A stretch of 58,675 nucleotides of DNA from Craspedostauros australis (lineage: Eukaryota): positions 1-58,675 of the forward strand of contig JALAGF010001131.1 in the NCBI GenBank assembly GCA_030167865.1. The letters run 5' to 3'. The first letter of the stretch is position 1. Each line of letters opens with the position of its first letter. Made by a program: the position numbers and the translations under genes. This document shows positions 21,717-54,837 of this stretch, piece by piece. Below the pieces are notes generated by a model that was not told the DNA's origin, made no database searches, and saw nothing but the letters and a program-made list of their open reading frames with translations.

Positions 21717-24590
21717 ATGCCCGCGATGGACTGCACTGAGATGGCGCCGGCAACCTGCGACTCTCCACGATCTGGCTGCTCCGAGGTACTGCCCCAATCG
21801 GTAGCTACTGGCACGCCAGTCCGTACCACCAGTATCGCAAACGGAGACGGAAGCAGATCCGGGCATGAGACCAACGACGGACCAACACTCTCCCACCAGA
21901 ACCACCATCGCCTTCTTAAGCGCAGGTCCGACGATGGCAAGGATTGTGAGAACTCTCCTTGTCAACCGATGGCGCCATCACCGATCGGCATGGTCATCGT
22001 TAGAAAGCCGATGTTGGACCTGGGATCCGCCTTCGTGGCTTCCAAAGATGCCTCTGTTTCAGCTTCTGCGCTCAGGATGGACAGCGACAACGCCAATGAC
22101 ATTGATAATGACAATGACGATGCCCTCCCGAGCATTACGTCCACGAATCGTCAAACAGAGAAGCAGCATGACGAACACAAACAGCGACGCCGTCGCAGCA
22201 TGTCTGACCCTGCAGCCCTGCCGTCGTTTCATCAACATCCCATGATTCCGCCAACAAATGACAAGCATGCCAGGTACTCAAAGCCCAGTGTTCATCTCAA
22301 CTTCAGCCAACCGCGTCGGTCACAGGCCCAGGCCTGCACGCCATCTCCACGCCCGCAACAGGCAAGCAGGGGCCGCAAGCGCAATTCGCAATGTCTCGCT
22401 CCCACGCCGTTGAGCCGCCACCTAGCCACCCAGGCGACCATTCAGAACCACGCAGACAGTTTCAGGCACGCAGCCGTAAAGCCCGTGGCCCACTCTTCCC
22501 TATCCACATCCACGCCTCCGCGCCATTCGAGAGACTCGTCGAAGGACAGCGCATTCTTCAAGACGGAGCCGCTCAAGCAGAGGACGCCGCTCCGCAACTA
22601 CGACGCAATGAATCGCACCACCATCGACATGCTGAATCCCCAGCAAACCCCCACCGGGGTGTACAGCGCATTCCAAGGCATGTCGTTGCAGTCTCCCGCA
22701 AGAAGCATCACATCGCGACAGTCCATGGGATCCTCGTTTTCCGCCTTCCAAAGCAGCGGTCGACGATCACCAGCACTCCATTCGTTGTCGTCGCCACCAC
22801 GCAGATCCGTGTTCGCCAGCACCGCGACTACCGCCACTGCCTACAGCACCACGCCAAGCACCAATAACGATGTCGGTCGCAACCCAGGACCGGCCCAACT
22901 GCCGTTGCCGTTCCAGTCAAGGGGGATTCACGACGATAGCCCGATGTCTCAGTCGATGGGCCTGCCGGGCAGCCGAAGTCATCTCCTCCCAAGCTCTCGC
23001 CTGCCGATCAGAACGACCCAATCGAACTCAATACAGTCCATTTCGCATCGGTCCCCAGCCCCAACATCCAGTCAGCGAATGGAAAGTTCGCGGATGATGC
23101 GGATCGAACAAACCGGGGCCATCAATCAAGATGATGTGCTGCAGCAGACACCAACAATGACACCATACTCGCACCGCTCCACGCATGGTGGTCTGCATGT
23201 GGACACGGTTCACAAGGAGCATGAGCGGGATCCTGACGGCTGGGTCCTCCCAACTCCGAAGACGGTTGATGTCAACCGCAGAAGCCAGCACCCTCCAACG
23301 CCGTTATCCGCACAGCAGGGATCCATCATGTCAGATGCCACGTCCACACCATTGCCCAGGCTCAGCCTGGCCCCCAGGGATCCATCGACCACGCCTGCAC
23401 TCAGTCTTCCATCGAGATCAGGTCTTTCTGTCCCGTCGCATCCAACAAGCCGGATTTTTGGCGCGCAGACTGGACGCGCTCACTTCTTTCCATCTTTCGC
23501 GGACGTCGACGCAAACCAAGCCACCGACACGACGGCGCTCCCCACAACCACGCTGTCCTTCCACGCACCTAGCCAGCGAACAGGGATTCCTATCCTTGGA
23601 GGTGAAAGGGGGAATGCTGGGTCTTCCGCGGCACCCATGTCGGATACGTCACCCATTCCAAACACCGCCAATCTGCACTTCGGGAGGAGACGTGCAGGTT
23701 CTTTGTCGTCCTATCCAATGCAAAGCCCCGGCCAGAGATCGACCGTCTCGCCGCACTTCAACAATAGCTTGAATCCATCTGCTTCATCGTCGCCGTGGGG
23801 GAAGCAGCAGCAGCAGCCTGCGATCCGCACCCAATCTCTTCTGACACCATCCAGATCAAACAGCGTGCTGAAGGCTTTGGCCTCCGCACGCGAGCGAGAG
23901 AAGGCCGAGACTGCCGATATTGACTCCCTCACCGACTCTGACGATGATGGTGACGACTTTGTCCTGTCGACGCCCAACCAGCTTGGGATGTGCTCCGTCG
24001 CTGACTCCGGTGCCGACGCCAGCAGAGGCGTGCTGTTCATCCCACGCTCAGCCTCTCGCAACGATGGTGCAGTTGTCGCCGACTACGGCATGCGGATGCC
24101 TCTCAACCGAGGCAGGACATCGTGCGCAAGCCTGATCGGCACGGATTTCGTCCACGATCCGGCGGGTGGCGCAACGGATGAGAGCATGGCGGAGACAAGA
24201 ACCGCGAATGCTCCTTCCTTTGTGCGAGATTCATCCGGCTCCCCCACGAACCCGCAGCCCATGGACGATTCCGACCGCAACCGCGAACACTCCATCGGAC
24301 TGGCTATCGAGACCGACGGCGGCCAGGACGTTGATGACGAGATGGATGCCATCGGCGGCGACGGATATCCCCGAGATCACCTCTCCATGCGAGACCTGGT
24401 GACGCCACCGGCAGTCCTGCCTGCGGGAGGCGTGGTGGAATCGCCGCCTGCTCGGCCGGGACCGCAGCCGGAACCGTCCCAATCGTCTGTGTACATATCG
24501 CGTGCGAATGCCAGCGCCGTCAATCTGACCATTGCCCAGATGGCCTTCGACGCCCACCGGCACGAAGCAGCATCGAGTGAGGGAGCCTGA
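21717..24590 (+). CDS. Uncharacterised Ser/Pro/Thr-rich, probably disordered protein (~957 aa)
   Basis: 961-codon open frame with first ATG at 21717. Many TP/SP sites, an acidic DSDDDGDDFVL block and RDLVTPP. No globular domain recognised. Confidence 0.75.
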   Translation: MPAMDCTEMAPATCDSPRSGCSEVLPQSVATGTPVRTTSIANGDGSRSGHETNDGPTLSHQNHHRLLKRRSDDGKDCENSPCQPMAPSPIGMVIVRKPMLDLGSAFVASKDASVSASALRMDSDNANDIDNDNDDALPSITSTNRQTEKQHDEHKQRRRRSMSDPAALPSFHQHPMIPPTNDKHARYSKPSVHLNFSQPRRSQAQACTPSPRPQQASRGRKRNSQCLAPTPLSRHLATQATIQNHADSFRHAAVKPVAHSSLSTSTPPRHSRDSSKDSAFFKTEPLKQRTPLRNYDAMNRTTIDMLNPQQTPTGVYSAFQGMSLQSPARSITSRQSMGSSFSAFQSSGRRSPALHSLSSPPRRSVFASTATTATAYSTTPSTNNDVGRNPGPAQLPLPFQSRGIHDDSPMSQSMGLPGSRSHLLPSSRLPIRTTQSNSIQSISHRSPAPTSSQRMESSRMMRIEQTGAINQDDVLQQTPTMTPYSHRSTHGGLHVDTVHKEHERDPDGWVLPTPKTVDVNRRSQHPPTPLSAQQGSIMSDATSTPLPRLSLAPRDPSTTPALSLPSRSGLSVPSHPTSRIFGAQTGRAHFFPSFADVDANQATDTTALPTTTLSFHAPSQRTGIPILGGERGNAGSSAAPMSDTSPIPNTANLHFGRRRAGSLSSYPMQSPGQRSTVSPHFNNSLNPSASSSPWGKQQQQPAIRTQSLLTPSRSNSVLKALASAREREKAETADIDSLTDSDDDGDDFVLSTPNQLGMCSVADSGADASRGVLFIPRSASRNDGAVVADYGMRMPLNRGRTSCASLIGTDFVHDPAGGATDESMAETRTANAPSFVRDSSGSPTNPQPMDDSDRNREHSIGLAIETDGGQDVDDEMDAIGGDGYPRDHLSMRDLVTPPAVLPAGGVVESPPARPGPQPEPSQSSVYISRANASAVNLTIAQMAFDAHRHEAASSEGA

Positions 24591-30115: not shown

Positions 30116-31336
30116 ATGACTCGGATGCCGCAGATCAAACGGCGGCATTTCTGCGCCTCTTTCCTCTCGTTCGTGCTCCTCAACAGCCCCGCCAGCTCGT
30201 CGGCATTTGGCTGGTTGGATCGTCCGCAAAGAATGGCAGCACACGTGCTATCAGACTACGGACAAAGGCCACGCGGCAACCAGCAACAGTCCACATTGCG
30301 TACGACCAGGAGCGAGGGTGAAAGCACCACCGCCAACACAAACACGAGTACAGCCATTGGCAGCAACAAGAGCAACAGCGACGGCGGGCGCGCGAGCAAC
30401 ATCCCATTCCAATTGAAACGAATCGACCACATCGTCATCCGTTGCCGTGAATTCCAGGGCATGATTGATTTCTACGTCAACGTCTTGGGTTGCACGATCG
30501 ATCATCCTGACGATGTCGAGCGCTTTGATGGTGCTCTCACTCATTTGAGAGCTGGAGATGCCTACATCGATTTGCTGTCCTACGATCCCAATCACCTGAA
30601 CGAAGCAGGCCAATGCGCCATCATCGCGATGCACAATGGCGGCCAAGGCAGCGATGCGAACAGCGTCCAGGATATAGTCTTTGAAGCATCCACGTCCACC
30701 ATGGACCATCTGTGTATCCGCGTGGATCCTTTCGACGAGGTCGCCATCATGGAACACTTATCGCAACATGGCGTCGAAATTGTGAGCAGCGGCCAGCGCA
30801 AGGGCGCAGAGGGAACTGGGCCATCTATTTACGTTGCCGACCCCGAAGGCAATGTAATTGAACTGAAAGGTCCCTCTGGGCCTTCGCCAAATTCGCAATC
30901 ATCTTCCTCTTCTCCAATCGGAGTAGATTCTCCATCGAGTCCAATCCATGACTCCGCAACTGGCGGTATGGATCAAACAACGGAATCGCGACAGGACGGA
31001 ACGCCTGGTGACGAGACGGAAAATACTGGAAGCAACAATGGCCAACGGCAGCAGGCATCAGACGATTCTATCAGCATCACACCTTGCAACCGGATCTGCC
31101 GCTACAATGCAAATTTCTTGGATGGCCAAGTGTGCATCGGCTGCTTCCGCGAGACGTACGAAATCAGCAGCTGGAGCGGCATGTCCGATGAGGATCGATA
31201 CTACGCCGTGCTCGATGCCAAGGACAGGGCGGTTGCCGGGGCTGATATGGATTTGGAAGGCTCGGTTTCTCTGCAAGACTTAGAACGCCAGGCGCAATTT
31301 TGGAAACAGCGATCGATGGCGAGCAAGACTGGCTGA
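30116..31336 (+). CDS. VOC/glyoxalase-family protein fused to a C-terminal DUF1289-like Cys domain (406 aa)
   Basis: VOC motifs IDHIVIR..FYVNVLG, MDHLCIRVDPFD and GAEGTGPSIYVADPEGNVIELKG. Then ITPCNRICRYN...CIGCFRETYEISSWSGMSDEDR. N-terminal signal ending SSA-F. Confidence 0.85.
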   Translation: MTRMPQIKRRHFCASFLSFVLLNSPASSSAFGWLDRPQRMAAHVLSDYGQRPRGNQQQSTLRTTRSEGESTTANTNTSTAIGSNKSNSDGGRASNIPFQLKRIDHIVIRCREFQGMIDFYVNVLGCTIDHPDDVERFDGALTHLRAGDAYIDLLSYDPNHLNEAGQCAIIAMHNGGQGSDANSVQDIVFEASTSTMDHLCIRVDPFDEVAIMEHLSQHGVEIVSSGQRKGAEGTGPSIYVADPEGNVIELKGPSGPSPNSQSSSSSPIGVDSPSSPIHDSATGGMDQTTESRQDGTPGDETENTGSNNGQRQQASDDSISITPCNRICRYNANFLDGQVCIGCFRETYEISSWSGMSDEDRYYAVLDAKDRAVAGADMDLEGSVSLQDLERQAQFWKQRSMASKTG

Positions 31337-31909: not shown

Positions 31910-34900
31910 CTAAACAGGCGAAATCGTTTCGCACTTTGGACAAAACACCAGAGCGTAGGATACAGGTGCTTGCAGACGTCCGCTGCATCCACGACAAATG
32001 ACGATGTGCGCCTTGCCGCTGCTGATGGCTCTCTGCGTTTCGACTGTTCCGCGCTCCACCAATTCTCGACGTCGTTCCATGGACTCGACACTGACGATGG
32101 ACTTGGAGGACATGGCGCGCGTGATCGGCGGCCTTGTGGCAGATGTGACCGGTGCTGTGTTTCTATCTCGATGGTTGTGATACTGTTGCTGCTGCTGGGG
32201 ATGGTGGTGGTGCTGCTGCTGCTGTAGATGTTGATGCTGTTGTTGGAGATGGTGCATCTGGGACGCTTGATGGTCACTCATGGCCCCACCGCCTCCATTC
32301 ATGTCGCTCGAATATGCCCATTTCTCCATCGCTTGCTGTTGGATGAGCAAGTATTCTTCCTGTGTTGACCTGGTGGAAAATACGGGATCCGCCGTCTGCT
32401 TCGACACTTGCAATGCCAACGATAGCTCCTTCCGCTCTTGTTCTTCCCGGATTTGTTCCAATATCTGCCACTGCTCGGTGGACTGCGAGGACGGATCTGT
32501 CGAGATACCGGCGGCCACACGGTCCGTCGCCCTTTCGTTGGCATTCAGCAATCCGTTCCGTGACATTGCACCCTGCATTTCATATGCCAAGAAATCTTCA
32601 AGATTGATTGACGGTCTGCGGGGATCGTTCGAAGTCTGTCCATTCGCCGGCTGCGGCGGATGTCCAAGCATGGGACCGGTGGGCTGGAGTGGCGAAGCAC
32701 TCGTGGGAGGAGATCTCATGGCGGCTCCATGGCCGTAGGCATCAGCGTTGGGCGTGCTGTCCTCCTCCGACAGCCGCAGAGCCAGGAGGATATCCTGCAA
32801 GCTGCTCACGCTCTGATCATCGAAATTTGCTGTGCCGTAGCCACCTTCGGTTGCTGCGTTGTGCGATCGCTGGTTGGAATACGGTGGCGGCGATCCGTAC
32901 ATACCCCTCGGAGGCTGCGGGTTCCTGGGAGATGGAGGCGGACGCGACATGGGCGGCTTGCCTTGGCTTCGTGGAGCCGGCGGTACGTGCTGATGCGAAT
33001 GACCGTGCTGCGATGCGCTCAGCGCAGCAGCCTCGTTGGCCTCCTGACGGGACAGTTCCAACGCCAGGAGCAGATCGGCATCCATGTCACCTTCGCTGGA
33101 TATCGGAATCGCCGTTTGCGTATTGGCCGAAGTGGGCTGGACGGATGGTGGTGGAGACTCTGGATATCCGCCAAGTGCTGCAGCCTGGAAGTCCGATTGT
33201 TGCAGACGCGTCGGTGCATCGAACTCCGTTGCTGCCGCTGAGTGCGCGTGATCTGCTCCATTCATCAAGTGGCCATCAGTACCACCGTATCCAAGATCGC
33301 CAAATGCGTTCGCCGTGCGTTGATGTGACGATCCCGATTTGGATGGCGGTGACGTGCTGGGTCCTTCCTGATAGCGCAAGGGCCTGGGCGGGGAGCCAGC
33401 GGATGCAGTTCCGGTGGTGGAAGCCGTCGGGGCTGTGGTTGACGAGTGAGATATTGCCTCGTTGCCGAAATTGGAATCTTGACTCGCTGTTCGCGAGCGC
33501 ATTCCGCCTGCCTCATTCTTGCCTCTGGTCTTCCCTCTACCTCTGCCTCTGGTCTTGGTCTTGCCTTTGCTGTTGCTACTGCCGCCATCCGCCTCGTCGT
33601 TGGAATGCGACGATGGTAGAGGCGGTTGCTTGAGTTTGGAGGGCGGAGAATGCTTTGTCTTGCCAGGTGCGGTTGATGCGGCCTTGTCGTTGCTGTTGTT
33701 GGGCGACTTCCCCCGCTTCTTCGACGACGATTCTTTACCCGATGACGGAGATGCTTTACGCAGAAACTTTGGAACACGCATGCCGGATTTTGGTTTGGCG
33801 GGTCGTTTGACTTCCTGAGGCTCCGGGATAGGCATGACCTGTACTTTGACGGGAGTAGATGATGGCAGCGATCGATGTTTGGCGGGTTGGGCCGTGGACG
33901 TCTTTTGGTGATGCGGTTCCTTCGGACGGCGTTTGGCCCGTGCATCGTCATTGTGCATGGCGTCGCTGTCCACGCCGTTGTACTCGTAATTGTATTGAGC
34001 ATCGTCGTTGCCCCCATCAGTGACCAGCTCGATGCTTCCACCCGCCAATTCCGCATCGCCTTTGTCGATGGGTTGCGCGACCGGCAGCGTGGACGTGCGA
34101 GCGCTGTCCTTCGCGGCCATTTCCTGCTTGGATGCCTTCCTTTGCTGCTTGAGGGCTTCGATCATCTGCTGCGTTTCCGTGACGCCCATGGGTGCGGGCA
34201 CATTGATGGAGTTCCCCACCGATCGAGCTTTGGGCGCCTCACCGAAGGCTTGGCGGTACATGAGCGAATCTGGCAGAATCGCTGGCTCATCCACATGCTG
34301 CGCACCTGGGTTCGTCGCACGGTTGCTTTTCGGCGGCGTGTCTCCCCTGGCACGTCCTGCTGCGGTCGTTTGGAACAGGTCGCCATCGTTGCTGACGGCG
34401 CGCGGGCGATTGGAGATCAAGCCTGGTCTTCCAGGGCGACGCGGCGGGTTGGTTTGCATTTGCAAAGCCTCTGTTGCAGCGTTGGTGGCGAGGCTCGCGT
34501 TTGCGGTCTCCAACGCCGACGCGTAGAAGGATGATTGTTGCTTATCCTTCGGGGCAATGTTCGACACAACCCTGGCCGTGTTCTGTTGCTGCTGCTGACG
34601 CTGAGGTTTTTTTGCGTGATGGAATCCATTCTCGTTCTGCATTTCGGTTGGCGATGGAGCAGATGCTGCCGCTGCTGTGGCAGATTGTTGTGGTGCCGGC
34701 AAACTAGCAGACGCCTCCGCGTGGGATGATGGCGGTGGTGGTTTCTTCATTGAGGTTGGTGCTGATGCTGCTGCTGCTGTTGGTGCTATTGATGGTATCG
34801 GTGCAACAGCAACCGCAGTAGCTGCAGCTGCCGATGTTGAATTTGCGTATGACCCAGGCGGCGGCGGCTTCAGGTTGGATCCTGGCGGTGGCGGTTTGAG

Positions 34901-35380
34901 GCCCGCGGTGGCCGATCCGGCGGCGTACGAGGAGGGAGGAGGTTTGGCATAGCGGTTGTCGAGGTTTTGGCCCGGTGGCTGTTTGAGGTTGGCCTGTGCC
35001 ATCTGTTCCTCCTCTTCGTAATCCTCATCGCGCTTCAGCCGTTCTCTTGGCGGCGGCGGCACCTGCATGGTGCTCCCATCCAGCGTCGTCTCATCATCGT
35101 TGTCGTCCTGATATCGAATCATTGCTTCGTACAGAGTTTCACCCTTGTGAGCTGAGGCAACTCCAGCTGCAGCAGCCGCAGCCGCCGCTGCAGGTGGTAT
35201 CGACGCAGGCACGGACGCCGAAGCGGCCGCAGTGGACGCGAAGGTATCTGATTCATAGCTGTGCAACGGCGCATGGTTCTGCTGCTCGTATTGCTGTTGT
35301 TGTTGTTGCTGCTGTTGTTGCTGCTGTTGTTGCTGCTGTTGTTGCTGTTGCGGGAGCTTCGCGCTCATCTTCGAGTCCAT
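31910..35380 (-). CDS. PolyQ, low-complexity protein with three UIM-like motifs and a C-terminal C4 (LSD1-type) zinc finger (1156 aa)
   Basis: Single long ORF with ~20 Q at the N-terminus. UIM-like DADLLLALELSRQE, QDILLALRLSEED and KELSLALQVSKQT. Ends CRGC-x14-CPKC. Confidence 0.8.
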   Translation of the reverse strand: MDSKMSAKLPQQQQQQQQQQQQQQQQQQQQYEQQNHAPLHSYESDTFASTAAASASVPASIPPAAAAAAAAAGVASAHKGETLYEAMIRYQDDNDDETTLDGSTMQVPPPPRERLKRDEDYEEEEQMAQANLKQPPGQNLDNRYAKPPPSSYAAGSATAGLKPPPPGSNLKPPPPGSYANSTSAAAATAVAVAPIPSIAPTAAAASAPTSMKKPPPPSSHAEASASLPAPQQSATAAAASAPSPTEMQNENGFHHAKKPQRQQQQQNTARVVSNIAPKDKQQSSFYASALETANASLATNAATEALQMQTNPPRRPGRPGLISNRPRAVSNDGDLFQTTAAGRARGDTPPKSNRATNPGAQHVDEPAILPDSLMYRQAFGEAPKARSVGNSINVPAPMGVTETQQMIEALKQQRKASKQEMAAKDSARTSTLPVAQPIDKGDAELAGGSIELVTDGGNDDAQYNYEYNGVDSDAMHNDDARAKRRPKEPHHQKTSTAQPAKHRSLPSSTPVKVQVMPIPEPQEVKRPAKPKSGMRVPKFLRKASPSSGKESSSKKRGKSPNNSNDKAASTAPGKTKHSPPSKLKQPPLPSSHSNDEADGGSSNSKGKTKTRGRGRGKTRGKNEAGGMRSRTASQDSNFGNEAISHSSTTAPTASTTGTASAGSPPRPLRYQEGPSTSPPSKSGSSHQRTANAFGDLGYGGTDGHLMNGADHAHSAAATEFDAPTRLQQSDFQAAALGGYPESPPPSVQPTSANTQTAIPISSEGDMDADLLLALELSRQEANEAAALSASQHGHSHQHVPPAPRSQGKPPMSRPPPSPRNPQPPRGMYGSPPPYSNQRSHNAATEGGYGTANFDDQSVSSLQDILLALRLSEEDSTPNADAYGHGAAMRSPPTSASPLQPTGPMLGHPPQPANGQTSNDPRRPSINLEDFLAYEMQGAMSRNGLLNANERATDRVAAGISTDPSSQSTEQWQILEQIREEQERKELSLALQVSKQTADPVFSTRSTQEEYLLIQQQAMEKWAYSSDMNGGGGAMSDHQASQMHHLQQQHQHLQQQQHHHHPQQQQQYHNHRDRNTAPVTSATRPPITRAMSSKSIVSVESMERRRELVERGTVETQRAISSGKAHIVICRGCSGRLQAPVSYALVFCPKCETISPV

Positions 35381-37220: not shown

Positions 37221-38063
37221 ATGTCTGTTCTTCACAACGAATACACGCTCAACATGGACAACCGCATCCATTGCAATGGAAACAACGACGGCCACATGAT
37301 CATGATGCACGAAGAAATGTCGCGAGAATGGGACGTCGATATCTTCCGCTTCACCGAGAGTCATGGATGGCAGCAACAGGTGCCATTGGCCGGCGATGAT
37401 GATGATGATGGTGATGATGAGTACGTTCATGATGATGGCAACAGAAGAAGACCGCGCCTGAGGGTTGCGCCAAGAAGAAACTGCATCGTCATCCCAGCGC
37501 TGCGCCAGAAGTTCACTCTGAACAACGACAACGTCAATGGCAGTCACAACAACAACAACAATGGCAACAACAATGGCAACGACGATGATGGCAAGAGCAC
37601 CAAGAAAACAACAGACAAAACGACCATGATCCAACGCGGCGACTGCATCTTGCTTGTCTCCAATTCATCGCAGCAGCGGCAAACGCGCGCCATGGTGCTG
37701 CGCTTTCGCTCTCGCCAAGAATGCCATGGCTTCTCGGCGGCTTTCTTGCGATACAATCCACCGAAGCGATCGTTGGCTGCGCCTTCATCGTCGCGTCACA
37801 AGCAAAACGTCATCACGCGACAGCATCGCGCAAACAAGCGGCAGCACAAGGATGCCGTCATGTCCTACGTCACGCGGTTGCTGCATGATCCCAGCTTCCT
37901 CAGCTTCGTTTCCAACTTGGAATCGCACATTGTCAACTCCGACGATGGTTCCAAGATGATGGAGGGATTGATGCCGACTGCTTCCGACAATAACGTTGGG
38001 GCAGCTTCCAATTCCAACTCCAGCCAGCAACAGCAAGATACACGTCGCAACACATCATCCTGA
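37221..38063 (+). CDS. REC114/PHS1-like meiotic double-strand-break protein candidate (~280 aa)
   Basis: ACCATG start at 37221. PH-like strands plus helix (IQRGDCILLV...RAMVLRFRSRQECHGFSAAF) and C-terminal YVTRLLHDPSFLSFVSNLESHI, resembling the REC114 C-terminal signature. Confidence 0.6.
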   Translation: MSVLHNEYTLNMDNRIHCNGNNDGHMIMMHEEMSREWDVDIFRFTESHGWQQQVPLAGDDDDDGDDEYVHDDGNRRRPRLRVAPRRNCIVIPALRQKFTLNNDNVNGSHNNNNNGNNNGNDDDGKSTKKTTDKTTMIQRGDCILLVSNSSQQRQTRAMVLRFRSRQECHGFSAAFLRYNPPKRSLAAPSSSRHKQNVITRQHRANKRQHKDAVMSYVTRLLHDPSFLSFVSNLESHIVNSDDGSKMMEGLMPTASDNNVGAASNSNSSQQQQDTRRNTSS

Positions 38064-38455: not shown

Positions 38456-41400
38456 CTATCCATGCCGCCGCAACCGCCTGGTTGGGGATTGGAATAGATC
38501 GCCCTCGCTGAACAGGTCCGTGTATCCATCCACTCCGACCACATTCGCACGATTCGGAAGACACATGTCCAGCTCCTCCTCCTGGTCCACGCCCATCCAC
38601 TGACACACGGAGTTCCAAACACAATCCCAGCTCGTGGTGGGCAGGATGCGACCGCGTCCGATGTTCAGGGAGCCCTCCGGCGTGATGTTGTCGGGGTACG
38701 TGCCGTACACCTGCCCGCCCTTCACGCTGCCACCGAACATCATGTAGTGCCCACCCCACGCGTGGTCGGTCCCGCCTCCGCTGTTGGGTGTGATGGTGCG
38801 GGCGAATTCCGATGCCACCACCGTCGTCACATCCTCAAAGCGCTCCTGGATCTTCAATTCCTGCGCGAACGTGGCGAGCGCCGCGTTCAGTGCGGAGAAC
38901 TTGATCTGCAAATTCTCCTTCACGAGGCGGTGATGATCCCAACCGCCGAGGCCGACGAAGAACAGGTCACGATCCGTGCCGCGCTGTTCGTGGGTTTGGA
39001 TCATGCGAGACACGATGCTCAGCTTCTGCGTCAGCTCCTCGACGTCCGTATCCGGCCAGTGATCTCCCAGCGAGGCGGATTCCAGCTGCGCCTTGATCTG
39101 CTCGGCCTCATCGACGCCCTTGAGGAAGGCATCGGACCACGCCTCGCCGAAGATGCTGGAGTACTCGCCGCTGAGGCTGTTCATCGACTTGCCTGCAGCA
39201 CTGTGGACGTCGAAGGTCTCGTCGTCGGGTCTGCGGTTGAACGACTGCGCTCCGAACCGACTCACGATGATCGGATCGGGTGCCTGGCCGTCACTCGCGG
39301 ACTCCACGGCTTCCGTCGGATTGTCGATGGTGACGGAGTTGGTCCTGTAGTCCTTGGCGGTCAGCACATCGGAGAGCCTGCCCAGCACTCCGGACCCGGA
39401 AACTTCGCTGAACACATCGATGGTCTTCGCCTCACGCTGCATCGAATTGTGGGCGAAGAGCTGGATGGGAGTGTATCCGAAGTAGTTGGACTTGTCCATC
39501 TTGGCATTGGCGAAGACGCCCGTGTTCGCGAAGAACGCCAGATGACCGTCGTCGTACATCTCCTTGACGATGGGAAGCTCGGGATGCAGTGCGAATTCGG
39601 TGCATGGCTGGCCAGAGGTTGCGGCGTTGACCACCAGGTCACGCTCTGCGTCCGTCAAGCCCACCGCTCCACGCTGATCATGGTACTGCTGGACCAGATC
39701 GCCGGAGCATGTGTGAGGGACCAGCATGTTGAACGAATCGTACCCACCCTCCAACAGCAAGTACACGACGGCCTTGTACTTTTTGCTGGATGACTGGGGT
39801 GGCTCAGGAGAGGGTCTCTGATCGTTTTTGTTTTCGGAGAGCGTGTTCGTGTGGAATTCGGGGCTCGTGATGATGGCCTGCTGCACGTTGATGAGCGCCA
39901 TCTGCGCATCGTCGGATTCGGCCATGGTCGATTCGTAGATCTGCTTCAACATCGCGAGCTTTGCGTCGTTCAGCCGACCGCTTGTCAGCAACATCGACAA
40001 CTCGTTGACGATTGTGGCAGCGTCTCCTGCGGCTTGGGCTGGAAGGAACATATTGTGCCCACGTGCGAATCTCTCGAAATTTCCAATGGCTCTCTGCTCT
40101 TCTCGTCCGGTTTGGGGGCCGAATCCACCGTACACGCCATCAAAGCCGAACTTGAGGAGACTGAGCATCCCGTTCATCAAGGCGATGACCTTTGGGCCAG
40201 TCAAGGCCTGGCACTCGGGACAGGCGAGGTCGGTGGTGCCGAAATCGTCCTTGAGGAGCAACTCCGGCAAGAAGAAGGAGAAGACGCTTGGCAGCTGGTA
40301 TGGCTCCTGCCCGATCAGCGACTGCAAGTCCCGCGAAAATGAAATATCCGGCGTCTGTTCCTTCATCTCGAATTGCAGAGATCTCATGAGCTTCAGATAC
40401 CGCAGGAATGGCTCGAACATGGACCCATGCGTGGGATCTTTGTCCAAGACATACGATCGTGTCTCGCGGTCAAGCAGCATGGCGGCCACAAGAGCTCCCA
40501 TGTCACCGTACTTACTGCTGCCGTACGTTCTGCCGCTGTCAGCGTGAGCGTATTTACCGCTGCGGAATGCAAGCGACATGGTCTCGACGTATCGTGGGGA
40601 TGGATTGGAGATTCCAAACCGCTGCGCCATGCGGTACGAGAGGAACGGTGCCATGTTGGGGTGATAAAAGTAATGGTCCAGCGCGGCATCGATTTCGTTG
40701 TTCACATCTCGTTGTTCTGGATGCGTCAACGAGATCATGTGTGGAGCATTCCGGAATTCCAGGAGCAAAGATGCGTCGCCGTTGTTATTCCCCACTTGTA
40801 CCGTGGAACGGATATTCCTCCTAAGTTGCTTGATGCCATTCTGATCCATAACTTCGAAAATGGAATCCTTGGTGATGGTTTGATCCGTGGCATGCATCTT
40901 CACGCCATTGCCCAGGTTGGTGGTGACCATGCCATTTGCGATTTGAAACTCGAAGGCCCCGATGTGCAGCTTCACGATCTCGTCGATGGTCGGAGAAGCA
41001 CCTTGCGGGATTGCCTGGCTGTCAACCCGCTTCGTCGCGCACAGGCAGAGGTTGTCGCTGCTATCCCGTCCACAACCCAGCGTGTCACACTGCGCTTCAT
41101 AATCAGCGAGGAAGTCCGCGATGGGGGCGTTGGCTCCATCATCCTGCGTGGATCCTGCCCACTCGACACGGAAGAAGCTCTTCGTGTCTTGTCGGATGTT
41201 TTGGTGAATCCCACCCTCGGGGACTTGCACCGGCAACGAATGGACTAATGCAACGCGTCCCTCAACATCGATCTTGGCTTGCACCGAGCATGCGCCTCTC
41301 GTCCACCGTCCGATGGAGGAATCGCAGGAGTTGGACACGGCACAATCGGTCGGAAGTTCGTTGCAGACGGACAGCGAATTTGCCTCGCATGTGGCAACCG

Positions 41401-44400
41401 CATCTGCAAACGAGACGCGCTCACCGCTGAACTCTTGGAACGTTTGGACGGCGCCGTTTGTTTGGCAGCAGCTTGTTGCGCCTTCGACGGCGGTCGGGTC
41501 CTCGCAATAGAACTGATTCGCATGCGTCCTCATGACCTTGCCGTCGTCATAGAAGCTCAACCGTGAGCATGGCGGCTGCACGTACTCGTAGAACACGCCC
41601 GTGCTACCGATCTCCAGCACTCGAGGAGCCTTCACGGAGCACAGGCCAGTATCGCCCGTGTTCGTGCCGCATGCGATATCCTCGGTCAGCGCAACGACGC
41701 CCTTGAAGCTGCACGACCCGCCGTTTGCGTTGCATAACTTGTCGTACAAGGGTGAACCGGCACCGACATTCAATCGAGTGACGGCATCCCGAGCAGATTC
41801 AGTCATTGACCATGCCATTGGTTCGTTGAGCATCTGTGGGTACGGATGTTTGCCAAGCAATCTGTATGTCGCCCCCGCCTTGAGGAAGTGCTGCGTGGTA
41901 TCGAGAGCGCTGCACAGTGGCAGGCCATCACCGACGTACCACCGATTCAGCCCCAGCTTCGGCATGAGATCGTGGGTGGCGATATCAAGCTTCATGGGAT
42001 CGATGGGATTCATGTTGCTTTGTGGCATCTTGTCTTCCACATTGCCACGCCGTTCTCGGGGCACGAAGCCTGTGTAGATCTTGGCGTATTCGCTGATTTC
42101 GTCATTGGTGTAGGTGCGGACGAATGCGTCAGAGTCCTCGGCGAGCACCCTGGTTCCGTTGGTGTGCATCTGGTGCAGACCGATGCTGAATAGCTGCATG
42201 ACCTCGCGAGCGAAGTTCTCATCGGCATACTCCAGCCGCTTCTCCTGTTGCCAGATGTAAGCAGTGCTCTTGCTGTTGACGTAGGAAAGCATCTCCCCCA
42301 TGAGCGGAGAGAAGGCCACCTCTTTGAGCACGTCACGGTAGTTGCCAAAGGCATGTCGCAGAAAAATGTCCGTGTAGGCCAGGAACGTCTCGGTCATGCG
42401 ACGGCCCGTTGCAGCGACGGCATCGGGCGATATGACGAGAAGTTGGGCGAGCGCCCATGCCACGCGCTGGCGAAGCTGGTCGGGCGAATACAGAGCCTGG
42501 TTCATCCAAATGTTGATGATCTGGTCTTCGAGGTTGGCATTGGAAGCCGTTTGGCCACGGAAAGTGACCGCGTCGAATGAGCCGCGGCCACCTGCGCTGC
42601 CACCCAACGTCCAATCCGAGGCAACCTCATTGGGGCTGCCGCACATGACGCCCCGTCGCAAAGCGAGCGCCGATGACGGGTCAATGTCGTCAACGATCTC
42701 GGTTCCCAGAGATTCCGCCATCGATCGTGATAGCTGCATCGCCACAGTATCGCCTCGCTTGCCTATGTTCCTGCGGCCACCGTTGTTCTCCCAGCGGTCC
42801 ATGCCGTGATTGGAGGGGAAGCTGAGCTGGAACGGAGCATTGTTGCCCATCGAGAATTGGAGAATTTGTGGTCTGCCCCCGGGATGTTCGTTGACCCAGG
42901 CCGAGAAGTCGAAGACCTGCCCTTCGTTGGGATGCACGTTCTGGTAGCAATCGCCATTGACCTGCACTTGGAAGTTGTACGATTGTACATCGCTGCTGTC
43001 GCAGATGGTGCCGATGGCTTGTGTGAAGACGTCGAATACATCTGTCGTTGCGTCATTCGAAGTCGCACCACGGATCAGAGTACGGAACGTGCCAATGGTC
43101 GTGGTGCCTGGCGAACCTTGATTGCAGCTGTTGCTGTTATCGAGACGTTGCCAACGAGACACTGTGCTGGGCGAACATGGCGGAGGCACTGTGTTCGGCC
43201 CGGAGTATTCCCCCTGCCGCAATCCCGTCACCGAATATATGATGGTTGCTCCTCGGGTGAAGTCGTACACGCCCTTCATGATGTCACGAGTTAATGGCAC
43301 AATGGTAGTGACAATACTGTCGCCGCCGCCGCCCCTGCCGCCACCGGATTGGAGGCTGGAAATATCATCGGCAGGCGTGCAGGAATCGTCAACGTCGTCC
43401 ACCAGCATGCAGTCTCTTTCATTGACGAAATTCATGGGGACGTTGGAGCACACCATCTGCCGACTAGCCAACCCCAACGTCGATTGCGGAACGTTCTTTT
43501 CCAACTCGTCGGAAATGATCTGAAGCACATCGGTGCCGCTGTCGGGGTTCGATAGGGTGTTCTCATGGACATTCCAGCGTGGATCATGGATGTAGAATTC
43601 ATTTCGGAACGACGCGACAACGTCGAACGTCTTGTGTGCGTTGGTGAGCGACGGGATGGCGCCGTTGGTGCACTGGGCATTCGTAAGCGCTTGTGTGACG
43701 ACGATCTCCTGTGGTCCGTCCTGGTTGTTGTAGAACTGTTCGTCTATAGGTCGTGCGTTGGCATTGTTGAGTCGGAGCAGAGGACGGATATCGTTCGGGT
43801 CGTTTGCATCGTAAGTGACGGCCGGATTGTCAATGTCCTCGCCTTCCGTCGTGACGATTGGTGAGCAACGGCCCGGCCCGGATGAGATTGTGAATCGTCC
43901 ACCGATGCGGTTGTCTCGCGCGAAGCAGACTTCGTAGCTGGGGGTTGAGAATGGATGGCGTGTGGGTGGATGAATGGATTGGAAGAAGGGATGAACGGAT
44001 GGAAGAATGAGTTTGAATGAATGAATGGATGGATGGATGGATGAATGAATATGAAAGTGACCAAACAAGATCTAAGAAGCGTAGAGCCCAAGAAGATTGC
44101 ACACCGAGCTCGCGCACCGAACTTACATCCCGTCTGGCACGACTTCGCCAATCGTGTTGCGATTGTTGTTGGTGATGCGATTCCCGTAATGGATGGTGGC
44201 GTAGGGCAGTACGACCTTCAATGCGTTGGCATTTGGTGGCTGATCAGCACTCGCGGTGCGATCTGGAAAGCCGATGGTGTAAATGTACTTCTTCGAATCC
44301 CGTGTGACAATCTGCAAAAATCTGGTGCGATCCTTATCTGTGAAAGCGTACTTGCGGTACCGGGTGCCCACCTGACATGGGTGCGTCGGGATGGACTCGA

Positions 44401-46502: not shown

Positions 46503-47966
46503 ATGACACGCTCTACCTTCATCCAGTTCGCCTCCACCATTGGGCTCTACTGGCTCATCGTTGCGCAGCACTTCACAACCGCACACGCTCGCATTGGTCA
46601 CGACAACAAAGGAGATGACAACTCTCCCAATACCCCTTCGTCGTCTTCCCGTCCGTCATCGCCATCCTCCACCCATGCGTCTGCTTTCGCCAAAGGACCA
46701 TCCCCGATCGTGCTAATCCCAGGCGACGGTGGCTCCGCGTTGGAGGCCAAGTACGACATCAAGACACCGCGACCGCATTGGTGGTGCCGCAAGTCTTCGA
46801 AAGGGAAGTGGGAGCGTCTTTGGATTCCCAAACTGACCGACCTTGCGCCTCTGAACATTGCCTGCTGGACGCAGAAGGTCCAGTTACACTACGACCTCAA
46901 CGCCACCACGATCGTTCCCAAGAACGCTCCAGGCGTCGAAGTCCGCACAGTGCCGGGCAAGGAGGGGCTGAACTTGGTCCCCCATGATAAGAGTGCGAAT
47001 GTGTACGATGCGCTGGTTCAGTCCTTTGAACGCGACACGGACGCGGATGGCCCTGGCGACGGGGTATACGTCGCCACGTACGACTTTCGTTTGGCACCGA
47101 CTGGCAACGACCGTGATGATGCCATCTTCCAGAACATCCAGAACACCGTCGAACAGGCATTTGAGGAGAATGAAGGGACCCCGGTCGTGCTCGTCACGCA
47201 TTCCATGGGCGCCCTGTGGACTCACTACTTCCTCACACATATGCCATGCGAATGGAAGAAGAAGTACGTGCATGCATGGGTGCCGATCTCGCCTGCATAT
47301 GGTGGCGTCGTGATAGATTTAAAGCAATTGATCAGCGGGGACAGCGCCGACGTGCCGTTGGTGAAACCCTCCACGTTGCGTACCGAGCAACGATCCTACG
47401 GAAGCAGTCTGTGGCTGATTCCACCGAAGCAGCTGTACAGCGATGATTACATCCTCGTGAAGTACGAAAAGGAGGGCATGCAGTTCTCCTCGAGGAATTT
47501 GACGGATCTCATGAAGATGGTCGATTTCAACGATTACGAGGTGCGATACGGCGCCATCTCTCCGTTGACACCTTGGGAAACGACGACAGTCAGCGCCGGT
47601 GATACCGCCGGATACTCCCACCACCACGAGCAGCTCGCAGACCCCAAGGTGGTCGTCTATCCGATCTATGGCACCAACGTGAAAACGCCGTACCAGCTGC
47701 AATACAAGTTATCGTTGAGCGAAGAACCGACGGTGATCAATTCTGTGGAAGGTGATGGAACCGTGCTGTACAAGAGCCTGAAGGCTGGGGATGGATGGAA
47801 GCTATCGCAGCCACCTAAGATCGGTGATCAGTTGAGTCACTCTGCGATCCTGTCGGATCCGGAGATCCTGGAGTACATTCGCAACATCACCCTGACGTCC
47901 GTGATGCAGACTGGTGATGTTGCAGAGGAGCAAGGAACGGTGACGGCGACGGTGACAACAGAGTGA
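46503..47966 (+). CDS. LCAT / group XV phospholipase A2-like alpha/beta hydrolase, secreted or luminal (487 aa)
   Basis: IVLIPGDGGSALEA, WWC/CW lid cysteines, YDFRLAP, nucleophile elbow THSMG, GDGTV and SHSAIL (catalytic His). N-terminal signal peptide. Confidence 0.92.
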   Translation: MTRSTFIQFASTIGLYWLIVAQHFTTAHARIGHDNKGDDNSPNTPSSSSRPSSPSSTHASAFAKGPSPIVLIPGDGGSALEAKYDIKTPRPHWWCRKSSKGKWERLWIPKLTDLAPLNIACWTQKVQLHYDLNATTIVPKNAPGVEVRTVPGKEGLNLVPHDKSANVYDALVQSFERDTDADGPGDGVYVATYDFRLAPTGNDRDDAIFQNIQNTVEQAFEENEGTPVVLVTHSMGALWTHYFLTHMPCEWKKKYVHAWVPISPAYGGVVIDLKQLISGDSADVPLVKPSTLRTEQRSYGSSLWLIPPKQLYSDDYILVKYEKEGMQFSSRNLTDLMKMVDFNDYEVRYGAISPLTPWETTTVSAGDTAGYSHHHEQLADPKVVVYPIYGTNVKTPYQLQYKLSLSEEPTVINSVEGDGTVLYKSLKAGDGWKLSQPPKIGDQLSHSAILSDPEILEYIRNITLTSVMQTGDVAEEQGTVTATVTTE

Positions 47967-50893: not shown

Positions 50894-52552
50894 TCACGTC
50901 GGCGACTTCTTGTCATCGGCAGGCGCCGCACACTGGATGCGACGAATCAATTCGCTGGTGGACAGACCCTCCGTACGCGGCAGAGGCCAGGCGATGCCCA
51001 TCTCTCGCGGCACGCGGTAATAGGGATCGTCCTTGGGGTTGGGATACCGTTCCAGGTACTCCATGCCGTAGGCCACGACATGGATCTGATGCTCATCGAG
51101 GAACTCCTTCGTGAGGCCGAAGCAGGGGCAGTTGGGTATGACCTTGGTGACGGCCTTGCAGGCATTGACCTCGGCGCAACGTTCGTCGTGCGTCATGATG
51201 GGCGGGCGCTTGTAGGCCTGGGCGTCGGCATCGCCCACGACGCCGACGAAGAGACGGTTGCCGTGCTGCAGGGCCTTTTGGAAGAGATTCTTGTGGCCGA
51301 CGTGGCACAGATCGTAAACGCCGTCGCAGTAGACGTTGCGACACGTGGTGAGCAAGGGCATGTTGAGGTAGGCGCTGAGGTCGGCAAACACGGCGATGTA
51401 GTACACCACGCAGAGGGTGAGGATGGTGGTGTGGCTGAGGACCGTGGCCATGGACATGAGGCAGACCCAGGGGTGGAGCTCGCGGCCCGCCATCTTGGAT
51501 AACGTGACGTCGGAGGTGAGGACGGCAAGGAAGAATCCATCGCAGATGACATCTCCAACCGTGCTCGTCGATGCGATGCCGAGATGGAAGAGCACTGCCG
51601 GCACGAATCGCATGAGCAGACTGGCGCTGAGACCGAACCGCGACCAACCGTGCGGACTCTGCAGCATGAGACACCTGGTGACGGCGATGATGTAGATGGT
51701 GTAGTACGTGTACATAGCCAGCAGATGCTCCTCGCTGCGGAAGAGATCCAGCTGGGACGACAGCGTGGACGTCGACGTCGCCAATGACGCGGGTATTATG
51801 AGATTGACCAGCGTCATGATGGCATTGATGCAATGCTGCAGGACCGCAGCGTAGATGTCCTGCAGCCAATCCAACCCCAGAGTGGCACGCACGGCCAGCA
51901 GCGCGACGGCCATGAGAATGACCTCGCCAGGCCCTGCGAGGACGTTGTACCGCAGCCCCGCATGCCGATGGAAGGCGCTGAGGTGCTTGAGGAAGAGCAC
52001 CAGCTGCGAGATCTGAACGGAGTACCACTGCGTCTCGACCGACACCCCACCCAGGCAGTAGACCGTGAGGATGGAGAGGAAGACGGTGGCGCCGGCATCG
52101 CAGGAGTACTTGAAGAGCTCCCCCAAAGCCGTTCGCTGCCTCATGTTGTCGGCATGGATGTTGCAGATGGAATTGGCGATCCAGAACGTGATGATGCTAA
52201 CCACGGCCAGCCACGTGCAGGCGGTGGGATAGTCATCGCCGTACGCGTTGACGAGGTACCATGCATGGCCCAATGACAGCGGACCGTAGAGCGCCACCAC
52301 GTTGGGTGCCACCGTGTGTGGCAGGAAGGTGGCCAGGTACTGGAACAAGGGGTCCATGAGCTGGTTCGTCAACGACCGATTCTTCACATCTTCGCGCCAA
52401 TTGGAGAACGTGAGCTTTTCTGGTGTTGTGAGGAACAGCTCCAACCAGCCCTCCGTCGTGCGGTTCATCGCGTTGGGGCCGCCATGGTCGCTCATGCTGC
52501 GGATGCTGCCGCTGCTTGAGTAGGCGGATACGATGGAGTCCTGCGGAGGCAT
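50894..52552 (-). CDS. Fusion of a degenerate CDP-alcohol phosphotransferase (CPT/EPT-like) domain and a choline/ethanolamine-phosphate cytidylyltransferase domain (552 aa)
   Basis: N-terminal LPHTVAPNVVALYG, ...TALGELFKYSCD and many transmembrane segments. C-terminal VYCDGVYDLCHVGH, YKRPPIMTHDER and RTEGLSTSELIRRI. Confidence 0.9.
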   Translation of the reverse strand: MPPQDSIVSAYSSSGSIRSMSDHGGPNAMNRTTEGWLELFLTTPEKLTFSNWREDVKNRSLTNQLMDPLFQYLATFLPHTVAPNVVALYGPLSLGHAWYLVNAYGDDYPTACTWLAVVSIITFWIANSICNIHADNMRQRTALGELFKYSCDAGATVFLSILTVYCLGGVSVETQWYSVQISQLVLFLKHLSAFHRHAGLRYNVLAGPGEVILMAVALLAVRATLGLDWLQDIYAAVLQHCINAIMTLVNLIIPASLATSTSTLSSQLDLFRSEEHLLAMYTYYTIYIIAVTRCLMLQSPHGWSRFGLSASLLMRFVPAVLFHLGIASTSTVGDVICDGFFLAVLTSDVTLSKMAGRELHPWVCLMSMATVLSHTTILTLCVVYYIAVFADLSAYLNMPLLTTCRNVYCDGVYDLCHVGHKNLFQKALQHGNRLFVGVVGDADAQAYKRPPIMTHDERCAEVNACKAVTKVIPNCPCFGLTKEFLDEHQIHVVAYGMEYLERYPNPKDDPYYRVPREMGIAWPLPRTEGLSTSELIRRIQCAAPADDKKSPT

Positions 52553-53390: not shown

Positions 53391-54837
53391 ATGACAGTGG
53401 AACAATCCAAGATCCTGACGGCCGAAACCGTCCCAGCGTACTTGAAGCCATTCCTGGCCAAGGAACTCAAGGACGTCTTCCCACCAACAGCCAACAGCGG
53501 CAGCAGCAGCGATGGAGACGACGCCGCCAGCACGCAGCTCACGGCCACCGCCATCCAAGGCGGCAACGTCAATTACGCCTTCTGCATCACATCCTCCGCC
53601 CATCCCGACACGAAGGTCTTCATCAAGCAGGCCCCGGAATTCGTTGCCATCTTCGGGCCTGATGGATTCCCCTTGACGTCCGAACGCATGCAACAGGAGA
53701 TGGACGTGTACGACGAATGGAGGCAATTGCTGGGAGCCAAGGCCTCCACGTACTTGCCCACCATCCACTTCTTCGATCGTTCCAATATGGTACGTTCCAA
53801 GCATGCTGCAATTGGACGACGGTGATCGCAAAACGTACATGCGTGTATATTGGTACATGCATGATCAATCGCAACAACTCATTTTTCTGTGTTCATTTTC
53901 ACATTCATGGCGAATCCGCGGCACTCATTTGCTCACTGTGATCACATCGTATCACATCACATCGCAGGTAGTCTGCATGGAATTCTTTGATGGATTCGAA
54001 CTGCTGGACCACGTCCTGGTGGATCCCAGCATGTCCACAATGGTCACACCCGAATGCGATCTCAAGATTGCCGAGGGGCTGGGCGAGTTCATGGGCCTCA
54101 CCCATGCCAAGACGCATTGCGACAAATTGCCATCCGACGAACGCAAGCAGTACCTCGTCCAGCATTACGAGAACCGTGCCATGCGGGATGTGCAGCTGGA
54201 GTTCGTCTTCACCAAATGCTACAAGGAGGCCACTGATGAACAACGCGCCGGACTCACGCTGACGGATGAATTCATGAAGGAGGTGGAGCTGCTCAAGCAA
54301 CAGTACGATGGAAAGTCGGTTGAGGGGCACGCGCAGAATCTCGTCCTGTGTCACGGCGACCTGCATCCAGGATCCGTCATGGTAGACAAGAGCACGGGCA
54401 CCGTCAAGGTCATCGATCCGGAATTCACCGTGTACGGGCCACCGGGATTGGATGTCGGTTCGCTGTTGTCGGGATATTGTCTGGGCGCGATCCATCAGGC
54501 CTATTCCGACAACCCCGATGCAGTGCAGCGCATCGTGGATAGCGCCAGAGCTATTTGGGATGCATACGTCGTCGGATTGAAGGCAGGTGGAATGGACAAG
54601 GACGACGATGCTATCAAGGCGATTGAGATCGAGACGGTCGGTTTCACCGTCGCGGAAGTGTGCCGCACGGCGTTGGAGTTTGCCGGTGGACGCAAGTGGC
54701 TGCAATTCGAGGATTCCGACGTCAAGGCTACCGCGAACAAGGCGGCGTTGATTTTGGTGGAAAAGTGCATGATCGCACGCCATCAAGGCGGTATCGAATT
54801 GATGTTCCAAGAGCTGGTCAGTGTCGCCAAGAAATAA
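53391..54837 (+). CDS. 5-methylthioribose-kinase-like (APH/choline-kinase fold) kinase; exons 53391-53789 and 53968-54837 (422 aa)
   Basis: GGNVNYAF, IKQAPEF, FPLTSERM..E, HGDLHPGS and VIDPEF..YGPPG.DVG. Phase-0 intron ATG|GTACGT...CGCAG|GTA. Confidence 0.88.

Follow-up and report, generated by a model that had tools for sequence, protein, structure and literature searches.

A candidate diatom REC114 with a PH-like domain and an SSM7-like tail in Craspedostauros australis

REC114 is an accessory factor of the SPO11 machinery for meiotic double-strand breaks that is known as Rec114 in yeast, Rec7 in S. pombe and PHS1 (POOR HOMOLOGOUS SYNAPSIS 1) in plants. It helps to determine at which sites and times meiotic chromosomes are broken. 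Its orthologues are described as having an N-terminal PH domain, a central intrinsically disordered region (IDR) and between two and four helices at the C terminus, and sequence identity between distant orthologues is reported to fall well below 10% (PMC10393190). The mouse protein has 259 residues (PMC10425845), of which C-terminal residues 224-255 bind MEI4, and structures of its PH domain are available as 6NXF and 7QWV. In yeast Rec114 the corresponding tail element, SSM7, comprises helices 2 and 3 (residues 399-426) and takes part in a 2:1 Rec114-Mei4 trimer. Here we describe a gene from the diatom Craspedostauros australis that lies on the forward strand at positions 37221-38063 of a 58,675-nucleotide stretch (the window), contig JALAGF010001131.1 of GenBank assembly GCA_030167865.1. 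Its product, which we label P0001, is probably the diatom counterpart and orthologue of REC114. This reading is based on the architecture of the protein, its predicted fold, two interaction motifs that match in register, and its neighbours in a protein language-model atlas.

The P0001 open reading frame (ORF) is real and conserved. Its ATG at 37221 is preceded, at a distance of five codons, by an in-frame TAG. Among 10 homologues retrieved by a word-indexed search, the closest is the 273-residue product of an MMETSP1442 transcript with the label "Craspedostau...", which is collinear with P0001 and 74% identical to it over 95% of the query. Comparison of P0001 with 1.84 billion cluster representatives using phmmer returned 128 proteins at E ≤ 1e-3, of which 37 reached E ≤ 1e-10 and only 3 reached E ≤ 1e-30. 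Two homologues are transcript-derived, the second coming from another MMETSP transcript. An organism label is present on the "Craspedostau..." homologue only; the 20 representatives that were looked up are from metagenome, JGI or Logan sources. Two alignments were used subsequently: A1, with 11 sequences, and A2, with 133 rows made up of the query, the 128 phmmer matches and four more sequences from the word-indexed search. Two low-complexity stretches and the lack of any Pfam match could be taken to mean that the ORF arose by chance, or is a mis-called gene, and has no product. Set against the two transcript-derived homologues and conserved blocks with invariant residues, this explanation has a negligible probability, and a spurious ORF was ruled out by the 128 homologue clusters together with a confident AlphaFold2 fold. 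The features of the gene and its product are as follows.

37221..38063, + strand: single-exon coding sequence for 280 residues plus a stop codon (P0001), from the ORF list, the translation and the collinear transcript-derived homologue.
37320..37760, + strand: predicted PH-like domain, residues 34-180, with eight β strands followed by a helix (165-178), from AlphaFold2 with A2 and structure searches.
37389..37451, + strand: Asp-rich low-complexity insertion in the β2-β3 loop, residues ~57-77; per-residue model confidence (pLDDT) 60-74; absent from homologues P0004-P0011 in A1.
37521..37613, + strand: Asn-rich low-complexity insertion in the β5-β6 loop, residues ~101-131; pLDDT 49-67; much shorter in homologues P0005-P0011 in A1.
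37629..37655, + strand: β6-β7 hairpin motif I137-Q-R139-G-D-C142-I-L144-L, a candidate partner-binding face, from conservation in A2 and the spacing in mouse REC114.
37761..37832, + strand: variable and probably disordered linker, residues 181-204; pLDDT 50-65; not conserved.
37833..37970, + strand: predicted C-terminal helical module (helices 205-222, 224-239 and 241-250), the candidate SSM7, MEI4-binding and dimerisation region; pLDDT 88-95 over residues 211-250.
37896..37931, + strand: core motif F226-L-S-F-V-S-N-L-E234-S-H-I237, directly past the inter-helix turn, from conservation in A2 and mapping to yeast and mouse.

In both alignments variable loops divide the conserved sequence into four blocks. 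In A2 the conserved positions of the N-terminal block include W37 (98/108), R43 (112/114), W50 (107/112), P84 (100/117) and F162, which is present in 130/130; those around the helix that follows are C168 (126/130), F171 (129/131), D173 (120/131) and N179 (122/132). The N-terminal PH block and the tail occur together in 122 of the 133 family members. Between them, the linker is unconserved and rich in Ser, Ala, Thr and Gln, with 24 residues in P0001 and a family median of 39. The poly-Asp and poly-Asn stretches are present in P0001 and its closest homologue and not in the shorter members, which suggests that low-complexity sequence has expanded recently where the surface loops of the PH domain can tolerate it.

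The AlphaFold2 model obtained with A1 was weak, having a mean pLDDT of 58. With A2 the mean rose to 74, and 107 residues had a pLDDT of at least 90. The A2 model has strands at residues 37-45, 49-53, 80-85, 88-91, 96-99, 133-139, 142-148 and 156-162, which together with helix 165-178 form a block with a pLDDT of 81-97. After the low-confidence linker come C-terminal helices 205-222, 224-239 and 241-250, with a pLDDT of 88-95. This secondary structure agrees with an earlier note, made from the DNA letters, which had described a small ORF that is β-rich in its N-terminal block and has helices at the C-terminal end, beyond a linker; the three strings that it quoted are all found in the translation (IQRGDCILLV at 137-146, RAMVLRFRSRQECHGF at 156-171 and YVTRLLHDPSFLSFVSNLESHI at 216-237). 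This layout, in which a variable linker joins the PH domain to two or three helices at the C terminus, fits that published for Rec114. It is also that of mouse REC114, which is of similar size (PMC10425845) and has an eight-stranded N-terminal PH domain with a helix, followed after a linker by a pair of C-terminal helices. P0001 differs from the mouse protein in its two long Asp/Asn-rich PH loop insertions and in having no similarity to it that HMMER can detect.

The model was compared with known structures using full-length P0001 as the query, so that these searches barely probed the C-terminal module. A VIA-align search of 48,161 representative chains placed the EVH1 domain of Homer3 first (2p8v_A, Z 10.4) and the mouse REC114 PH domain second (6nxf_A, Z 10.1, 105 residues aligned, root mean square deviation 3.5, 14% identity). 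The N-terminal domain of CARM1, which Kumar 2018 compared with the REC114 PH domain, was at rank 7 with a Z of 9.6. A second run re-scored the best 997 chains from Foldseek and gave a best 50, headed by the EVH1 domain of SPRED1 (6v65_A, Z 11.2). Here 6nxf_A was at rank 14, again with a Z of 10.1, and the REC114-TOPOVIBL structure 7qwv_A at rank 46 with a Z of 9.4 and 19% identity, a value that no other of the best 50 matches exceeds. In Foldseek itself the REC114 chains had the top target-normalised TM scores among the matches listed (0.55-0.56). The top Foldseek match, a Ran-binding domain, had a root mean square deviation of 11 and a target-normalised TM score of 0.45. Foldseek with the first, A1-based model gave the same picture. 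The predicted PH-like fold of the N-terminal domain of P0001, which the earlier note had staked its reading on, is thus established as a confident model of eight strands and a helix, with REC114 among the best matches. The PH fold, which in REC114 has two antiparallel sheets with strands as far as β8 and a helix at its C-terminal end, is necessary for a REC114 but does not discriminate, because it is common to EVH1, Ran-binding and Dcp1 domains.

The same matches underlie a different explanation, which we consider unlikely but the main rival to REC114. P0001 could be a stramenopile-specific, non-meiotic adaptor that combines an EVH1-, Ran-binding- or Dcp1-type PH-like domain with a C-terminal helical oligomerisation module, in a Homer-like layout. 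EVH1 domains provide the top Z scores (6v65_A 11.2, 1qc6_A 10.6, 1ddv_A 10.5 and 2p8v_A 10.4), with Z scores of 10.2-11.2 over 91-101 aligned residues for EVH1 chains overall, and Ran-binding domains provide the best Foldseek E-values. EVH1/WH1 domains (Homer, SPRED1, Ena/VASP) and Ran-binding domains thus share the PH-like superfold with P0001 at equal or slightly higher scores than REC114. They have no sequence or Pfam link to P0001, and no SSM7-type tail is described for them in the literature examined, a comparison made by descriptions only.

The surface of the PH domain bears on the choice between these explanations. In the mouse, TOPOVIBL binds the β1/β2/β6-β8 sheet of REC114 through V97, R99, M100, C102, L104, M115 and R117 (Nore et al. 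2022, PMC9671922). The V97-R99-C102-L104 spacing recurs in P0001 as I137-R139-C142-L144 on the predicted β6-β7 hairpin. R139 is present in 124/124 sequences of A2 and is the sole fully invariant Arg of the family. Its neighbours are also well conserved: Arg occurs at 138 in 109/124, Leu at 144 in 100/124, and Val, Ile or Thr at 137 in 111/124. That the invariant Arg and its β6-β7 neighbours share the spacing of the mouse partner face argues against a non-meiotic adaptor. Since C142 is variable, with Cys in 35 of 123 members, and no counterpart of R117 can be placed, we regard the PH-face match to mouse REC114 as suggestive only. The TOPOVIBL-binding face of the mouse protein is itself reported not to be conserved in yeast (PMC9671922).

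In the C-terminal tail, the MEI4 contact residues of mouse REC114 are F230, L231, L235, F240, F243, V244 and V247 (Laroussi et al. 2023, PMC10425845). At an ungapped offset of 14 they fall on Y216, V217, L221, F226, F229, V230 and L233 of P0001, so that mouse F240-x-x-F243-V244-x-x-V247 corresponds to F226-x-x-F229-V230-x-x-L233. In yeast Rec114, Liu et al. describe a nearly invariant F411 directly past the turn, contacts by I412, V415, V418 and L422, and a salt bridge between E419 and R29 of Mei4. A single ungapped offset of 185 places yeast I402, L406, F411, I412, V415, V418, E419 and L422 on V217, L221, F226, L227, V230, L233, E234 and I237. Mouse F240 is equivalent to yeast F411 (Daccache et al. 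2023, PMC10393190), so that the mouse and yeast offsets are mutually consistent. The modelled post-turn helix 224-239 has F226 as its third residue, the place that F411 takes in yeast.

The residues that map to Rec114 contacts are the best conserved positions of the tail. F226 is found in 129 of 131 members in A2, E234 in 122/131 and V230 in 103/131; L220 (125/131) and D242 (113/130) are also conserved, and an aliphatic residue occupies position 233 in 131/131 and position 237 in 129/131. Conservation of the tail in homologues, like the PH fold, had been set beforehand as something on which the REC114 reading would depend. The motif that the earlier note had given for REC114 tails, L..D..F..FV..VE, agrees with the residue numbers given for mouse and yeast Rec114 in three papers. 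A pattern defined from the literature, F-[hydrophobic]-x-x-[VIC]-x-x-[LIVM]-E-x-x-[LIVM], has a single match, at F226, when the window is translated in six frames (117,346 residues), and it matches 87 of the 133 family members. Looser patterns derived from the family match 119/133 members against 3 background matches.

The predicted tail of P0001 therefore has the form of SSM7: its helix-turn-helix carries a Phe directly past the turn that is almost never replaced, inward-facing hydrophobic residues every 3-4 positions and, as in yeast, a Glu. If P0001 were an adaptor of the kind described above, this likeness would be a convergence between amphipathic helices. Against that stand the six to eight named REC114 contacts that are matched in register, among them the near-invariant post-turn Phe and the Glu. 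P0001 is shorter than yeast Rec114, in which SSM7 is situated near residue 400, and the basic DNA-binding-face residues of yeast (R395, K396, K399 and R400) have no conserved counterpart in the family. The region before the tail helix is basic in P0001 and acidic in most homologues in A1.

Language-model comparison places P0001 nearest to proteins of the REC114 type. In the ESM Atlas its nearest cluster is a REC114-like one (score 0.92, 192 of 256 features) with 61 members, in which Rotifera is the commonest phylum and PF15165 is found on 15%. Three PHS1/Rec114 clusters follow at ranks 2-4 with scores of 0.86-0.88, then a Rec7 cluster at 0.79, and Inp1 and DCP1 clusters lie behind these. P0009, a homologue 41% identical to P0001, gave the same order, with 187/256 features for the REC114-like cluster and plant PHS1 clusters at ranks 2, 3 and 5. 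Plant PHS1 thus resembles P0001 in its PH-plus-tail layout and in Atlas rank. It differs in that the cluster representatives have ~325-353 residues and in that its Pfam model, PF25349 (PH_PHS1), gives no hmmscan match in the P0001 family. For both members four to five REC114-type clusters precede any EVH1 or Dcp1 cluster; a cluster of EVH1_PP4R3 type appears for P0009 only at rank 12 (0.79), and the DCP1 proteins of diatoms fall into clusters of their own, whose scores against the P0001 family are no higher than 0.75-0.77. These rankings oppose the adaptor explanation. We treat Atlas neighbours as leads, and as one supporting line for REC114 rather than as proof.

Conventional sequence searches gave no such link. 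Pfam has three separate REC114-type models (PF15165, PF03525 and PF25349), which between them cover the animal, fungal and plant branches, and these are absent from the family tallies over all 133 rows of A2. The weak Pfam matches that recur are to generic PH-like families, namely PH_35 in 6/133 members (best E 1.3e-4), VID27_PH in two, and Rpn13_Pru and PH_FT_C in one each. These generic matches, the lack of a significant REC114 sequence match and the presence of homologue transcripts in ordinary cultures count in favour of an adaptor. The models for the adaptor domains themselves (EVH1/WH1, Ran_BP1 and DCP1) match no member of the family either, whether in the 105 homologues scanned at E ≤ 10 or in the 133-member tallies. 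The 133-sequence profile A2, compared with 177,635 PDB sequences at E ≤ 10, did not have mouse REC114 among its matches, and word-indexed searches with profiles A2 (17 matches) and A3 (22 matches, E ≤ 10) recovered members of the family itself and no named REC114 or PHS1.

Beyond the variable C142, several observations weigh against the identification of P0001 as a REC114. A hmmscan of P0001 against Pfam found no PF15165, PF03525 or PF25349 and nothing else relevant, none of 105 homologues scanned singly at E ≤ 10 matched a REC114-type family, and REC114 was not found among PDB sequences with the query, profile A1 or profile A2. The Atlas recognition value of 1698 is below the level that the tool treats as strong evidence, and the top cluster carries PF15165 on only the small fraction of its members given above. 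In the structure searches EVH1 (SPRED1 at Z 11.2, Homer at 10.4-10.5), Ran-binding, Dcp1 and FERM-F3 domains are within 1 Z of REC114, and Foldseek put Ran-binding domains on top (E 8.4e-4) with REC114 at rank 16 (E 6.2e-3). The mapping of the tail relies on published residue numbers and not on an alignment to the mouse and yeast sequences; the mouse dimer contact I254 falls on S240, a Ser/Thr position, and yeast K405 falls on L220. The linker is short, both in P0001 and at the family median, beside the "long central IDR" described for known orthologues. There is no enrichment of [ST]Q sites, with 59 observed and 81.9 expected in the linkers and 170 observed and 259.9 expected in the whole proteins. 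Finally, the two transcript homologues come from culture transcriptomes that are not known to be sexual, and the bearing of this on strictly meiotic expression is neutral or slightly negative. Clustering of ATM/ATR-type [ST]Q sites as a Rec114-like feature was discarded, there being fewer sites than expected.

The short linker and the unenriched [ST]Q sites would also suit a true REC114 descendant that has no role in break formation and is kept for another meiotic or nuclear role, as in the case of Arabidopsis PHS1. The latter is reported to be dispensable for double-strand breaks and yet to bind its partners (PMC11511760, PMC10393190). We regard such a change of role as quite improbable for P0001. 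The PH domain of Arabidopsis PHS1 is predicted to be incomplete (PMC10393190), whereas that of P0001 is complete and confidently modelled, and both candidate interaction surfaces show the strongest conservation in the family, a pattern that selection for the canonical partners would produce.

The identification of P0001 as a REC114 orthologue, as proposed in the earlier note, accordingly stands as the best reading of the protein, although no sequence or profile search connects it with a REC114 family at a significant level. This is a real weakness, yet one in keeping with the low identity reported between distant orthologues and with the three separate models in Pfam. We infer homology to REC114, all of the binding partners and the meiotic role from the features set out above. 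If P0001 works as its mouse and yeast analogues do, two copies of it would interlock through the C-terminal helix-turn-helix, residues ~213-250. A hydrophobic ring in which F226, F229, V230 and L233 face inward could then clasp the N-terminal helix of a putative MEI4-like protein, with E234 forming the conserved salt bridge. Proteins of the MEI4/PRD2 type carry a hydrophobic helix-turn-helix at the N terminus and HEAT-like repeats after it. The PH domain would offer its β1/β2/β6-β8 sheet, including the invariant R139, as a docking face. This face might bind a short helix of a TOPOVIBL-like SPO11 partner, a Mer2/IHO1-like axis protein, or both, and the result would be to link double-strand-break formation to the chromosome axis. 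A partner of the ANKRD31 type is not expected in diatoms because ANKRD31 is reported to be vertebrate-specific (PMC10666023).

A Pfam scan of the window ORFs gave no functional hint from the genes that neighbour P0001. A 1666-residue ORF on the reverse strand (38456-43456) is arranged tail-to-tail with the P0001 gene, the two stop codons being 392 bases apart. This ORF fuses DUF1800 (residues 280-474, E 4e-48) with DUF1501 (residues 1227-1588, E 1e-33), domains that in bacteria are usually encoded by adjacent, separate genes. On the other side of P0001, a forward-strand ORF of 406 residues (30116-31336) has a Glyoxalase/dioxygenase-superfamily domain (102-250) and a C-terminal DUF1289 (322-365). 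Four long ORFs have no Pfam match at E ≤ 1e-5: 3965-6544 (+ strand, 859 residues), 21717-24590 (+ strand, 957 residues), 31910-35380 (- strand, 1156 residues) and 55174-58395 (- strand, 1073 residues). Three genes of lipid-metabolism type lie within ~8 kb of one another and may form a loose cluster for phospholipid head-group metabolism. They encode an LCAT-family acyltransferase (46503-47966, + strand), a cytidylyltransferase-like protein (50894-52552, - strand) and a choline/ethanolamine-kinase-like protein (53803-54837, + strand).

The earlier note had stated that REC114 is not in standard diatom meiosis inventories, and this holds in the literature examined. The main text of the diatom meiotic toolkit study (Patil 2015, PMC4647503) contains no mention of REC114, MEI4, PHS1, MER2 or PRD3. 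Judged by titles and abstracts, the literature that pairs REC114 with diatoms reports no diatom REC114, although a stramenopile orthologue may have been listed earlier; a search for "poor homologous synapsis" with diatom found nothing. Excerpts of other surveys report REC114 in 0 of 18 chrysophyte transcriptomes, not recovered in Symbiodiniaceae and not detected in the rhizarian Fisculla. Tesse 2017 has no mention of diatom, stramenopile, Phaeodactylum, Thalassiosira or Phytophthora, and Brinkmeier 2022, in the parts available, traces REC114 and MEI4 across metazoans only; between them these two studies, in those parts, cover fungi, plants and animals.

Inventories for diatoms and for the stramenopile-alveolate-rhizarian (SAR) lineage thus list SPO11 while omitting REC114 or calling it missing, which can be read as a different regulation of break formation. 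That a REC114-like family is conserved points instead to a gene that was overlooked through divergence beyond the range of BLAST and HMMER. On balance we lean slightly towards a wider conclusion: that with P0001 a REC114 is recognised for the first time in diatoms (and, within the searches made, in SAR), with both of its surfaces strongly constrained, and that diatoms then carry unrecognised MEI4-, Mer2/IHO1- and TOPOVIBL-type partners, the whole REC114-MEI4-Mer2 (RMM) module dating from the last eukaryotic common ancestor. A full RMM module in diatoms is something that we infer from this one component. REC114 is already presumed by specialists to be widespread, and its presence in diatoms would be a useful extension rather than a surprise. 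It would be one more observation in favour of an RMM module in the ancestor of eukaryotes. The P0001 family also offers a handle for seeking the diatom MEI4, Mer2 and TOPOVIBL partners and would add a sexual-stage marker for diatom transcriptomes; if the identification is true, its presence would mark as competent for meiosis those diatoms in which sex was never observed. A diatom REC114 would suggest that meiotic breaks in these algae are subject to the same control machinery as in yeast, plants and animals.

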